DNA from: Candidatus Bathyarchaeota archaeon | Lineage (GTDB): Archaea > Thermoproteota > Bathyarchaeia > TCS64 | Length of the DNA stretch: 29,391 nt | Direction: 5' to 3' | Assembly: GCA_043826455.1 (NCBI GenBank) | Contig: JBDRQD010000058.1 | Location: 1 to 29,391, forward strand | Shown: one piece after another, positions 24,001 through 27,000 of the stretch | Layout: the number at the start of each line of letters is the position of its first letter | Numbering within the stretch: position 1 is the stretch's first letter | Position numbers: made by a program

Positions 24001-27000
24001 CACGCCCGCGGGCACGTGGAGGGGCTTCCCCTTGGTGAGAGGGTACTCCACGTTCCGGCCCTTATCCTTGAACACGTACTTGGCTTTACCATCCATGAGG
24101 ATGGAGGTCTGTTCCACCTTGTGTATGTGGTTTCCACGGTACATCCCGGCCCTGGTGTAGAGCAGCGAGTACCACTTCCCCTTGTAGGTGAAGCCTATGG
24201 CCTCGCCGACGTACTTCATCTCTCCGCCGGTCCACCTCTCATAGTCGATGACGTGCTTCTTCGTCACTTTGTCTACCACGGTTGGATCATGGATGATAAC
24301 CTTATTTATCAGTGCCTGTTAAAACCTAAGCCGTTCACGCGCCTCTGAGCATATATTATATGGCTGCGTGCAATATGGGTCTTGTTGATACACTTTGGTT
24401 AAGGTCGATATCCCCCACCACTGCTGGTACGAGGACAAACCCCTCACCCTCACCTTCCCCGACGACTGGAAGGTCCACAGGTGCAGGGTGGCCAGCGAGG
24501 GCGCCAAGCCCATGACTGAGAAGCAGATCAAGGCAGCCATACTGAAGCCCGTAGGCCAGAGGCCGCTACCCGAACTGGCCGAGAAGGCCGAGGAGGTGGT
24601 CGTCATCTTCGACGACATGACCCGCCCAACGAAGACGTGGCAGTACACGCCCACAATCTTGGAGACCCTGCACAAGGCTGGGGTCCCGGAGGACAACATC
24701 AGGTTCATCATAGCGCCGGGCACCCACGGCACCTATGGTCGAAGAGACTTTGTGAAGAAGCTGGGCGAGGACACGGTGAGCAGGTACCAGGTCTACAACC
24801 ACAACCCCTACGAGATGCTGGACTACCTGGGGGACACCAGCCACGGCTGCCCTGTCTGGGTGAACAGCGAGGTCATGTCCTGCGACCTAAAGATAGGCGT
24901 CGGCACCGTCCTCTTCCACAGGCTCACGGGGATGAGCGGCGGAGGCAAGCTCATCAGCCCCGGCGTCGCCGGCATCGAGACCATACGGTTTAACCACGGG
25001 GAAGTGGGGGGCTTCGGCCCAGGCAGGACTCCGGACCCGTCCACCGGCTACATGGCCAACGACCAGAACAGGATGAGGCACGACGCTGAAGAGGCTGCAA
25101 GGCTGGCGGGCCTGGACTACAAGATCGACACGGTGCTGAACCTGAACAGGGACCCCCTAGAGCTGTACGCGGGGGACTTCGTGGAGACCCAGCGCCGGGC
25201 ATCCAAGGACGCCATCAGGCTGCACGCCACGGAGAGCCCCGAATCAGACATTGTGGTGGTTGGCAGCTATCACAGGGAGAACGAGCCCTACCTGGGCCTG
25301 TGGCCCGGCCTCAGCACGGTGAAGGAGGGGGGCACCCTGGTGATGGTGAATGACTGCCCAGACGGAGACATCAACCACTGGCTCTTCAACAGGCACGGCA
25401 AGACCATCGGAGCCAGCCTCTGGAACCCCAAGTCTCAGAGGTTACCCAAGGTGAGGCACATGATCATATTCGGCGAGTACCCGTTGAAGAGCTTCTTGAT
25501 GAGGTATGAGGCCGAGCAGGTAACCTGGATCAGGCGGTGGGACGAGGTGGTGGAGGAACTGAGGAACCACCACAAAGCCGGGTCGAAGGTGGCCGTCATC
25601 CCGGACGGCACCAGCTGTATACCCGAGAATACGTTGGTGAGTTAGATGAAGAAGGCGATACAGATAGACGACAAGGACAACGTGGCCACGGCCACCGGCG
25701 ACGTGAAGAAAGGGGAGCAGGTGGAGATACTGTCCCCTGAGGGCAAGGTCATCCTCAAGGCTAAGCCTGTGGACGACATAGCCTTCGGCCACAAGCTGAG
25801 CCTCAGAAGGATCAAGATGGGTGAGGAGATCATCAAGTATGGTGAGGTGATAGGGGTCGCCTCCAGGGCGATCCCCGCCGGCGAGTGGGTTCACACCCAC
25901 AACGTGGACAGCGCCAGGCTCAAGACCTCCGGTGAGGAGGTCAGGGGGGTGACTGTGTGACCGAGTTCCTCGGATACCAGAGGCCCGACGGCTCAGTGGG
26001 TGTACGGAACCACCTTCTGGTAATAGCGCCCATTGATTGCAGCTACGAGCCCGCTAAGAAGATCGCGGACCAGGTGCCTGGCGCCGTGGCCATCACCCAG
26101 ACCCACGGCTGCGGGGCCGACGCTATGCTGATCCACAACCTGGTGGGCACAGCGCTAAACCCCAACGTGGCGGGCGTCCTCATCGTCGGCCTAGGCTGCG
26201 AGACCCTCACCGGGGAGATGCTCATGGAGCAGATAGAGCCAAGTGGTAAACCTGTACACAACATCACCATACAGGAGCTCGGCGGCACCCTTAAGACCCA
26301 TGAGAGGGGCGTCAGGCTCCTCCAGGAGATGGCGCAGAACGCGGCGAAGCTGAGGCGTGAGCCCTTCCCCCTGAGCAAGTTGACCCTGGCCGTGGAGTGC
26401 GGGGGCAGCGACGCCACCAGCGGACTGGCCGCCAACCCGGCCGTCGGCGTGGCGGCCGATCTACTCATCGAGGAAGGAGGCAGCGTCATCTTCGGGGAGA
26501 CCCAGGAGATGAGCGGCACCCAGCACCTGCTGGCGCGCCGGGCCGTCAACGACCGGGTGGCCAAGGACGTCTACACCATCATTGAGGCCCAGGAGCACAG
26601 GCTAAAAGCCATGGGGGTAGACAGCCGCTGGATGAGCAAGGGCAACATAGACGGCGGCCTCACCACCATAGAGGAGAAGAGCCTGGGAGCCGTGCGCAAG
26701 GGGGGCACCAAACCCATCCAGGGGGTACTCTTCAATGACTGGGACAGGTTCGACAAGCCTTCCAAGCCTGGCCTGTACATCATGGACGGTACGGGCTGGG
26801 ACGTGCCCAGCGTCACCCACATGGTGGCCGCCGGGGCCCAGGTTGTGTGCTTCACCAGCGGCGCGGGCAGCACCACGGGCCACGCCATCGCTCCAGTCAT
26901 CAAGGTGACTGGGAATCCCCAGACCTATGTTAGGATGACTGACAACATGGACGTCAACGCCGGTACAATCCTGGACGGCTCGGAGAGCCTCAACAGCGTC

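Follow-up and report, generated by a model that had tools for sequence, protein, structure and literature searches.

LarA-family genes without the cofactor genes larB, larC and larE in a Bathyarchaeia genome and many of its relatives

A conserved operon opened by a LarA-family gene

The window analysed here, the whole 29,391-nt contig JBDRQD010000058.1 of a Candidatus Bathyarchaeota assembly (GCA_043826455.1, referred to as G000), carries a gene of the LarA superfamily (DUF2088) from an uncharacterised subgroup. This gene is the first of a conserved operon, in which the genes for the two subunits of a UxaA/GarD-type dehydratase come next and, in most cases, a CinA-N/COG1058 gene after them (Table 1). 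The start codon of the SAF-domain gene abuts the larA stop codon, and its end overlaps the gene for the dehydratase large subunit by 4 nt. The SAF, GD_AH_second and GD_AH_C domains of these two downstream genes, shared with the GarD (6U7L)/UxaA family, all score above the Pfam cut-offs, and the large subunit matches galactarate dehydratase in the PDB (6u7l, 1.2e-52). The galactarate dehydratase profile TIGR03248, however, gives only 43 bits for the small and 211 bits for the large subunit, against a cut-off of 731. The small-plus-large layout may be likened, by analogy, to that of SuyAB, a two-subunit sulfolactate sulfo-lyase.

Table 1. Features around the larA gene in the window
Feature	Position	Strand	Evidence
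DHDPS-family (aldolase/KdgD-like) + Fae-domain fusion	22321..23805	-	Pfam DHDPS 1.5e-68, Fae 1.5e-46
Small cupin-domain ORF between DHDPS-Fae gene and larA	23860..24279	-	Pfam Cupin_2 3.1e-5, below cut-off
LarA-superfamily (DUF2088) gene, uncharacterised subgroup	24395..25645	+	TTG start, 416 aa
SAF-domain small subunit, split UxaA/GarD-type dehydratase	25646..25960	+	Pfam SAF 7.3e-10
UxaA/GarD-type dehydratase large subunit (GD_AH_second + GD_AH_C)	25957..27132	+	Pfam 2.4e-87, 2e-33
Stand-alone CinA N-terminal/COG1058-type protein	27999..28856	+	Pfam MoCF_biosynth 3.7e-34, 117.9 bits

Among related loci, the SAF gene lies downstream of the larA orthologue in 25 of 29 from the order, and the dehydratase follows on the same strand in 40 of the 44 orthologous loci with sufficient sequence. 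The product of the CinA-N gene is a putative COG1058-type member of the pyridine-dinucleotide/ADP-ribose pyrophosphatase family, scoring 171.7 bits with NF002291 (cut-off 293) and 86.4 bits with TIGR00177 (cut-off 85.35), and matching CinA chains in the PDB at 1e-20 to 5e-27. This gene may belong to the larA operon: of 30 orthologous loci offering at least 5 kb, 24 have it downstream and on the same strand, 8 of them directly after the dehydratase, and in this genus a rubrerythrin gene on the opposite strand sits between the two. On the other side of larA, both neighbours are divergent from it and rarely conserved: of 80 related loci, only 9 have the DHDPS-Fae fusion next to the orthologue and 3 have the cupin ORF. 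The fusion protein could, by a weak link, catalyse a later step of the same acid-sugar/hydroxy-acid pathway. A 313-aa ORF of the window had no family or solved-structure match. In an RNA library from another study, contigs that are 88-95% alike span larA and its junction with the SAF gene, as well as the dehydratase and CinA-N genes; run X22, from the study of the likely source, gave a single 176-base contig on larA, and run X21 gave patchy contigs. Such contigs are no proof of transcription, and the larA gene appears to be in use.

No biological pincer complex other than the nickel-pincer nucleotide (NPN) of LarA enzymes is known to us, nor any makers of it besides LarB, LarE and LarC. On the window LarA, Pfam Lar_N (PF09861) scores 184.8 bits (cut-off 23.3, E = 1.5e-54). 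The AF2 model (pLDDT 91.6, pTM 0.91) superposes with Foldseek on full-length holo LarA (9eid, 8ezf and 5huq) at TM 0.80-0.82 over about 440 columns, holo, closed LarA being the best superposition, and a structurally intact LarA-family enzyme is thus predicted. A HMMER alignment to 5huq, the LarA of Lactiplantibacillus plantarum (LarA Lp), pairs D74, R77, H111, H175, K185 and H201 of the window LarA with D72, R75, H108, H174, K184 and H200. These include the two catalytic histidines (His108 and His174) and the NPN-binding Arg75, Lys184 and His200, whose roles are described in PMC11770544 (section 6). All six residues are invariant in the 29 order orthologues, 26 of which come from genomes without a LarC match, and in all 115 database homologues, against only 46 of 416 invariant positions in the whole alignment. 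This invariance shows strong purifying selection on the residues that anchor NPN and on the catalytic ones. The first-pass annotation had stated that this gene keeps the residues that hold and use NPN, citing matches to 6d6z (E = 4e-37) and 5huq (E = 3e-28) and several aligned motifs; we found all of these again (E = 4.3e-37 and 2.8e-28), and the residues it pointed to prove to be invariant in 144/144 relatives. Binding of NPN and nickel by the window LarA remains a prediction from these residues.

Like the LarA enzymes of L. plantarum (5HUQ/6C1W) and Isosphaera pallida (9EIA/9EID), the window LarA has a two-domain fold (TM about 0.8) with both catalytic histidines, the NPN-tethering lysine, the nickel-ligating histidine and the arginine of a D-x-T-R-P motif, yet it is only 23-24% identical to them. 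Unlike L. plantarum LarA, it gave no LarA_C match in a Pfam profile search, has R176 at the position of F175, and comes from a genome without larBCE. It also differs at Gln295 and Lys298 of LarA Lp, which we take to be the residues for the substrate carboxylate; here the HMMER alignment has a 3-residue gap and a leucine, and Y292, R294 and E297 are invariant in this region. The malate racemase Mar2/LarAH6 (6D6Z) is its best sequence match, yet the curated NCBIfam cut-offs are missed for every equivalog compared: malate racemases LarAH6 (NF052593, 206.6 bits against 500) and Mar1/LarAH5 (171.7 against 462), lactate racemase (NF033504, 176.5 against 460) and LarAH10 (173.1 against 540). LarAH group 5, to which LarAH5 would belong to judge from its numbering, is 100% associated with COG2721 altronate-dehydratase-type genes (Desguin et al., 2020; Table S1, PMC7583248), the same kind of neighbour as beside the window LarA. 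In contrast to group 5 and the malate racemases, the dehydratase here is split into SAF and catalytic subunits, and the substrate assignment is putative. We propose that the window LarA would invert an acidic 2-hydroxy acid at C2, through the proton-coupled hydride transfer to NPN that is usual for such enzymes. The stereospecific dehydratase could then use either isomer, with malate/tartrate-like, aldarate or sulfolactate-like compounds as candidate substrates.

Absence of larB, larC and larE in the genome and many of its relatives

The G000 assembly (2.95 Mb in 81 contigs) is 97.66% complete with 7.21% contamination. A profile search of G000 for LarC (PF01969) returned 0 matches at E<=10. 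The LarB profile NF033503 had a sole match, on contig C55, which reached 48.4 bits (cut-off 175) and is a plain 146-aa PurE (AIRC 182 bits); the best match to the LarE profile TIGR00268, at 49.9 bits against a cut-off of 150, is a GMP synthase PP-loop subunit. A tblastn search of G000 with LarB, LarC and LarE from a same-family genome gave nothing better than E = 0.015 and no lar remnant. Detection is not the problem, since these genes score 240-410 bits and are clustered where they are present. In the congener G043 (contig C91), the gene order is radical-SAM, LplA-like, radical-SAM, larE, larC and larB; on contig C38 of G000, the same radical-SAM, LplA-like and radical-SAM genes lead directly to a GH116 gene on an unbroken contig. 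The site of the congener's larE-larC-larB cluster is therefore contiguous and empty in G000. The larB flanks of G041, G054 and G025 had no match to this site, so that the exact deletion boundary can be drawn only on the larE side. The first-pass annotation's report that this genome encodes no LarB, LarC or LarE thus rests on repeated profile scores, the tblastn result and an empty syntenic site.

Within the order (79 genomes, G000 included), Lar_N is found in 78 genomes, where at least 75 of 78 had been counted before. LarC matches occur in 7 of the 79, one of them (G074) a remnant with two stops, and LarB and LarE exceed their cut-offs in 4 genomes each, all also LarC-positive. The first-pass claim that the genome and its order lack the cofactor genes therefore stands for the genome and fails for the order, in which 7/79 carry at least LarC. 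Its finer counts were reproduced, both the 3 of 39 near-complete order genomes with LarC and LarB (2/33 in family f1, 0/3 in f2, 1/1 in f3 and 0/1 in f4, plus G000) and the 0 of 17 in the genus (0/16 in g1, plus G000). Its central premise, a LarA with an NPN site in the absence of larBCE, reaches further than proposed: 218 of 371 class genomes that are at least 90% complete (59%) have Lar_N without LarC. Most of the genomes are MAGs, and as kin are not independent, such counts overstate the number of independent events.

We examined the arrangement and ancestry of the cluster across the class. Among 20 loci fetched from other families, all three genes occur together in 13, where larE adjoins larC and larB is divergent from it; larC is accompanied by larB in 4 and stands alone within the fetched window in 3. 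In a LarC tree of 25 of 26 rows (G025 was too short and was dropped), the four family-f1 sequences form one clade with support 100/99, in which G023, of genus g9, nests among sequences of genus g1. Given the same arrangement across families and the single LarC clade in family f1, the larE-larC-larB cluster looks ancestral, and hence looks to have been lost repeatedly even as LarA homologues persisted and in fact grew in number; the LarC remnant of G074 fits such loss. Within a single genus, some members have the cluster and others lack it at the same locus, which, with its apparent ancestry in the family, suggests that producers and non-producers coexist.

In draft MAGs, losses during binning may account for some of the absences, and the whole pattern could largely be an artefact if larE-larC-larB were a strain-variable or hard-to-assemble island missing from consensus MAGs. 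Consistent with this, four of the six order genomes with the cluster (G043, G054, G041 and G025) carry it on contigs of about 2-7.4 kb, the nesting of G023 among g1 sequences is as for an accessory cluster, and G000 itself has 7.2% contamination and 81 contigs. However, Lar_N occurs without LarC in seven single-contig genomes (G011, G151, G258, G263, G382, G383 and G384) and in several others assembled into 6-30 contigs, the syntenic junction of G000 is assembled through with no lar remnant in that genome, and the pattern extends to 218 of 371 near-complete genomes. We consider an artefact on this scale very unlikely.

G000 has four Lar_N matches, on contigs C58 (the window gene), C15, C6 and C2, which agrees with the four LarA-superfamily genes annotated earlier. 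The C2 paralogue keeps the NPN residues and exceeds the cut-off of NF052515 (540.5 bits against 400), as the earlier assignment to this equivalog at 540 bits had it. The C6 paralogue has lost the equivalents of R75, H108, K184 and H200 and is nonetheless conserved in G011; its flanking ORFs (435 and 422 aa) had no family or solved-structure match. One such degenerate paralogue per genome, together with a frameshifted Lar_N gene in G011, might suggest that the LarA genes are functionless relics heading for loss after the cofactor pathway vanished. The ORFs are, however, intact and without internal stops in nearly all 79 order genomes, the active site is invariant, the operon is conserved and RNA-library contigs cover it, and relics of this kind are hardly credible.

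Possible sources of the cofactor

The first-pass annotation had offered three options, unknown synthesis, uptake or another cofactor. This is the right set, to which a fourth reading has to be joined, that of coexisting producers and non-producers with some absences due to binning; none of the three is demonstrated, and the last has been weakened. Use of another cofactor, or of none (for instance a metal bound directly, or a simple pyridine nucleotide), by the LarA homologues of larBCE-less lineages would accord with the absence of the sole known NPN pathway, with a family that can drift from NPN, as the C6 paralogue illustrates, and with the replacement of Q295 and K298 in the window LarA. 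Against this, the NPN-tethering lysine, nickel-ligating histidine and phosphate-binding arginine are invariant in 144/144 relatives, and the strongest LarA of each of 20 LarC-negative and 20 LarC-positive class genomes keeps these three and the other three of the six residues. The site is shared by orthologues from larBCE-positive genomes, and two of these genomes, G023 and G043, also have the operon. These equal residues with and without LarC, in a shared operon, argue against a different cofactor, as does a predicted fold that superposes best on holo, closed LarA, and we regard this reading as quite unlikely.

Alternatively, NPN, or a very similar pincer cofactor, could be made by enzymes unrelated to LarB, LarE and LarC. 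Lar_N genes have expanded to as many as eight in a larBCE-less genome, and no uptake system was found, with PnuC (PF04973) and CbiM/NikM (PF01891) giving no match in G000. The most suggestive neighbour is the CinA-N/COG1058 gene, syntenic in 24 of 30 loci and present as a second copy beside another LarA paralogue in G011, an adjacency not kept in G000; for members of this family, passages of PMC3680494 describe hydrolysis of pyridine dinucleotides, NaAD among them. A Pfam scan for candidate makers in the neighbourhoods of the four G000 paralogues and five G011 loci found only DUF362 and CinA-N to recur, and no other gene of unknown function. The CinA-N gene is, however, equally linked to the operon in larBCE-positive G023 and so does not compensate for larBCE loss; we rejected it as a substitute for the hydrolase half of LarB. 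The canonical cluster, moreover, looks ancestral and occupies the same locus in close relatives, and a replacement would have to be older than a large number of separate losses. Synthesis by unrelated enzymes is in our view rather unlikely.

Our preferred explanation, held tentatively, is NPN auxotrophy with salvage of the cofactor from the community. The cells would be NPN auxotrophs whose LarA apoproteins are loaded with NPN or a late precursor from larBCE-carrying neighbours, including sister strains and species of the same genus, and loss of larBCE would be of the Black-Queen type, comparable to corrinoid auxotrophy. In vitro, apo-LarA can be loaded with free NPN, and many corrinoid enzymes persist in Dehalococcoides, which does not make corrinoids. 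The likeness lies in a costly pathway lost, multiplied dependent enzymes kept and a supply from the community; the difference is that corrinoid transporters and remodelling enzymes are known, whereas for NPN none was found here. We know of no NPN transporter or salvage enzyme. Several points speak against salvage. NPN is reportedly labile, and neither PnuC, CbiM/NikM nor the genes beside LarA provide an uptake system, with no transporter recurring in the neighbourhoods of the four G000 paralogues and five G011 loci. Larger numbers of Lar_N genes in larBCE-less order members (2-8 per genome) than in the LarC-positive genus g52 (mostly 1) would be unexpected if supply were precarious, and some cluster absences, in MAGs where the cluster lies on contigs of at most 7.4 kb, could be binning losses.

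Significance of LarA users without NPN makers

About 1% of genomes were reportedly found by Desguin et al. in 2014 to have larA without the full set. The literature we searched, bioRxiv supplements aside, gave no report of LarA users without makers, and the supplement of PMC11770544 contains no Bathyarchaeia row and no larBCE co-occurrence data. The reverse pattern is published: passages of PMC11796402 and PMC13524815 describe larB, larE and larC without larA in cyanobacteria, explained in part by new NPN-binding folds such as NphT, an NPN enzyme of the aldo-keto-reductase fold. In both cases NPN users are uncoupled from makers, with the difference that here users are present and makers absent. 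This mirror case would show either exchange of NPN between cells or a second route to NPN. It is a strong one, seen in 218 of 371 near-complete genomes of a class abundant in sediments, where a genome can have up to 8 LarA genes. Existing heterologous NPN-loading systems could put either outcome to the test.

For metabolic reconstructions, the pattern is a warning that hydroxy-acid racemisation is not inferable from larA alone, and for the cultivation of Bathyarchaeia it suggests a concrete supplement or helper strain. A bolder proposal, which we hold to be fairly unlikely, is that Bathyarchaeia, and possibly other anaerobes, have an NPN route independent of LarB, LarE and LarC, either non-homologous synthesis or dedicated salvage through a transporter and maturation enzymes; one of these enzymes might be the COG1058 pyrophosphatase linked to the operon, with a dinucleotide form as its substrate. 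If this were true, NPN would be a cofactor that cells in anoxic sediments share, much like a vitamin.

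The window LarA and its cofactor site

The larA-like gene of the window reads open for 416 codons from a TTG start, and the strand opposite to it carries many stops. Its product contains a Lar_N domain (184.8 bits), and its top curated matches are equivalogs of racemases that depend on the nickel-pincer nucleotide (NPN), each far under its cut-off (the LarAH6 malate racemase equivalog gives 206.6 bits vs a cut-off of 500). The closest solved relatives are, in order, the malate racemase Mar2 (6d6z, 4.3e-37), Isosphaera pallida LarA (9eia, 1.5e-31) and L. plantarum LarA (5huq, 2.8e-28). 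We built an AlphaFold2 model on a 54-row alignment (pLDDT 91.6, pTM 0.91), for which Foldseek places cofactor-bearing LarA structures on top over the full length (9eid, 5.8e-29, TM 0.81; 5huq_B, TM 0.82).

In a HMMER alignment, D74, T76, R77, H111, H175, K185 and H201 of the window LarA correspond to D72, T74, R75, H108, H174, K184 and H200 of 5huq; the Gln295/Lys298 pair of LarA is not conserved. PMC11770544 names H108 and H174 as catalytic and R75, K184 and H200 as NPN-binding. When the query is aligned with 29 orthologues from genomes of the order and 115 of the 120 listed database homologues (at least 380 aa), 46 of 416 positions are invariant, including D74, R77, H111, H175, K185, N200 and H201; Y292, R294, E297, W329, H334 and G335 are invariants specific to this subfamily. 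Genomes without any LarC match supply 26 of the 29 order orthologues. Among 40 class genomes, a non-random sample picked from the top matches listed, all six key residues are intact in the top-scoring Lar_N region of 20/20 LarC-negative and 20/20 LarC-positive genomes.

Three further contigs of the genome, C15, C6 and C2, bear LarA paralogues. The C15 paralogue retains all of the same NPN and catalytic residues, as does the C2 paralogue (NF052515 'group 22' equivalog, 540.5 bits), and the equivalents of R75, H108, K184 and H200 are gone from the C6 paralogue. The first-pass annotation had held that the window LarA and the C15 paralogue keep the NPN-holding residues, and both the 5huq alignment and the paralogue comparison bear this out. 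The C2 paralogue is co-directional with a PdxA-type dehydrogenase and a DUF1537-type (D-threonate-kinase-like) kinase, a locus that suggests a tetronate-type acid-sugar pathway. The C6 paralogue, with Lar_N and LarA_C domains, has a counterpart in the single-contig relative G011 (37.5% identity) and is adjoined by two same-strand ORFs with no family or solved-structure match. G011 also has a Lar_N gene broken across two frames, through misassembly or because it is a frameshifted pseudogene.

Coordinates of the features discussed (L-numbers are loci cut from contigs; G000 is the genome under study)
Feature	Location	Strand	Remark
DUF362 gene	window 19030-20052	-	
313-aa ORF	window 21263-22204	-	92-96% alike in three congeneric contigs
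DHDPS-family (aldolase/KdgD-like) and formaldehyde-activating-enzyme (Fae) fusion	window 22321-23805	-	one 494-aa ORF
larA-like gene	window 24395-25645	+	
Rubrerythrin-like ORF	window 27460-27936	-	between dehydratase and CinA-N gene in the genus of G000
CinA-N/COG1058 gene	window 27999-28856	+	
DUF362 gene, G000:C15	L029:8385-9215		convergent with larA, 4-nt overlap
DUF362 gene, G011	L089:13017-13847		
C6 paralogue	L030:4327-5571		
435-aa ORF beside C6 paralogue	L030:5746-7053		
422-aa ORF beside C6 paralogue	L030:7050-8318		
C2 paralogue locus	L031:9610-13158		
Broken Lar_N gene	G011:C1:124068-124650 (L091:7021-8134)		
LarC remnant	G074:C26:97365-97805		model positions 233-369

The operon and its predicted reaction

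Behind larA lie genes for the small (SAF) and large (GD_AH) subunits of a UxaA/GarD-type dehydratase. No base separates the larA stop from the start of the SAF gene, and SAF and GD_AH share 4 nt. Both follow the orthologue at 23 of 29 order loci (two loci end within SAF and four have neither), and in public genome contigs 40 of 44 loci (orthologue of at least 55% identity, 1.7 kb or more of sequence beyond it) have the dehydratase downstream in the same orientation. Against galactarate dehydratase 6u7l the large subunit reaches 1.2e-52, but on TIGR03248 only 211 bits (cut-off 731). Where the sequence runs 5 kb or further past the orthologue, 24 of 30 loci have a CinA-N/COG1058 gene downstream in the same orientation, eight of them directly behind the dehydratase. 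In G011, G023 and others the rubrerythrin-like ORF is missing between these two genes, and the CinA-N gene comes next after the dehydratase.

Desguin et al. 2020 (PMC7583248, Table S1) tie LarAH 'group 5' 100% to COG2721 altronate-dehydratase-type genes, a neighbourhood resembling the UxaA/GarD-type dehydratase downstream of the window larA, and PMC11770544 describes LarAH5 as a malate racemase with tartrate as a side activity. From the operon with a dehydratase and these parallels, we infer that the window LarA would racemise or epimerise an acidic 2-hydroxy acid at C2, feeding a dehydratase or lyase that is stereospecific. Two arginines that do not vary, R176 and R294, suggest that the predicted substrate bears a second anionic group.

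In a sediment metatranscriptome of a separate study, contigs 88-95% alike cover larA, the larA/SAF boundary (25416-25743), the dehydratase, the rubrerythrin gene and the CinA-N gene; the operon is thus present in an RNA library, a hint that falls short of proven transcription. The operon, in the same gene order, occurs on contigs titled Candidatus Desulfaltia (95% protein identity), Krumholzibacteriaceae (77%) and Patescibacteria group (59%); they are probably Bathyarchaeia contigs that were binned or labelled wrongly. Upstream, the DHDPS-Fae ORF is kept at 84-99% in several congeners and joins an aldolase to a formaldehyde scavenger, which is unusual; the 313-aa ORF has no Pfam or NCBIfam match at E<=1. 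The DUF362 genes near LarA paralogues match the cyanobacterial Npun_F2552 model weakly, and the DUF362 family serves as the LarA outgroup in PMC11770544.

Distribution and history of larE-larC-larB

Published papers (PMC11796402, PMC13524815, PMC12611868, PMC7583248, PMC11770544) assign NPN synthesis to LarB, LarE and LarC and describe the reverse pattern, larBCE without larA. The genome under study (2.95 Mb, 81 contigs, 97.66% complete, 7.21% contaminated; GC 57.8%, window contig 59.7%) yields zero LarC candidates at E<=10, a 146-aa PurE as the sole LarB match and, for LarE, a GMP synthase PP-loop subunit at best (49.9 bits); tblastn with LarB, LarC and LarE of G023, a relative in the same family, reaches E 0.015 at best. 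On the congeneric contig G043:C91, the order is radical-SAM, LplA-like, radical-SAM, larE, larC and the start of larB. Orthologues of the three flanking genes stand in the same order on the 58-kb contig C38 of G000 (56-75% identity) and run straight to a GH116 gene about 100 bp further on, so the larE-larC-larB site is assembled and empty. Profile searches, tblastn and this site thus all uphold the earlier claim that the three genes are not encoded here.

Lar_N is found in 78 of 79 order genomes (at most eight matches each) and LarC in seven, or 3/23 at >=90% complete and <=5% contaminated. LarB and LarE exceed their cut-offs in four order genomes each, always LarC-positive ones and clustered with LarC; controls were positive in 5-6 of 14 reference genomes, as expected. 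One of the seven LarC matches, in G074, is a remnant with one TGA and one TAA inside and looks like a decaying copy. Of the 371 class genomes with a completeness of 90% or more, 144 have LarC and 356 have Lar_N; crossing the two lists by hand gives 138 with both, 218 with Lar_N only, nine with neither and six with LarC but no Lar_N (G095, G097, G109, G110, G131, G404). Seven of the 218 are single-contig genomes (G011, G151, G258, G263, G382, G383, G384). Given these closed assemblies and the vacant syntenic locus in G000, a binning artefact is unlikely as the main cause of the absence.

LarC is patchy across families (f5 19/23, f16 89/197, f15 3/25, f18 2/26, f20 0/12, and 2/33 in f1, the family of G000). 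The three-gene cluster, whose larC adjoins larE and diverges from larB, is present at 13 of 20 loci fetched from other class families; four have larC and larB, and three larC alone within the fetched stretch. In a maximum-likelihood LarC tree (25 rows, G025 excluded as too short, no outgroup), the four f1 sequences form one clade (100/99) and the f16 sequences a separate one. LarC of G142 (family f15) falls within the f16 clade (90/81 and 100/100), which may reflect transfer of the cluster between families. Since G023, of another genus, sits among sequences from the genus of G000, the cluster behaves as ancestral yet accessory, present or absent at a single locus inside a genus. We read this pattern as repeated loss, with gain as the less favoured alternative.

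Source of the cofactor

The larBCE-positive G023 and G043 carry the same orthologue and operon, CinA-N gene included. A switch to another cofactor in larBCE-less lineages would need every NPN-contacting residue left intact, and we consider it improbable. The intact contacts make it likely that the cofactor is NPN or something very near it, from outside or from unknown enzymes. Synthesis by enzymes other than LarB, LarE and LarC seems less likely than supply from outside, given that no candidate pathway genes recur beside the LarA paralogues in the neighbourhoods of G000 and G011. Literature searches returned no paper joining Bathyarchaeota with lactate racemase, only unrelated ecology titles (judged by title) for Bathyarchaeia with LarA, and no use of the term 'nickel-pincer' among the 15 papers listed, of 3,755 found, for nickel-pincer with salvage, uptake or auxotrophy.

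We favour NPN uptake over such synthesis because losses have happened repeatedly and look recent, the genus still includes producers, and no pathway candidate is found repeatedly next to LarA genes. Profile searches of G000 for PnuC (PF04973) and CbiM/NikM (PF01891) found no NPN transporter. Under uptake, cells without larBCE would take up NPN made elsewhere, with producers still in the same genus. A point against uptake is the expansion of LarA in larBCE-less genomes, which fits a secure cofactor supply better than a precarious one.
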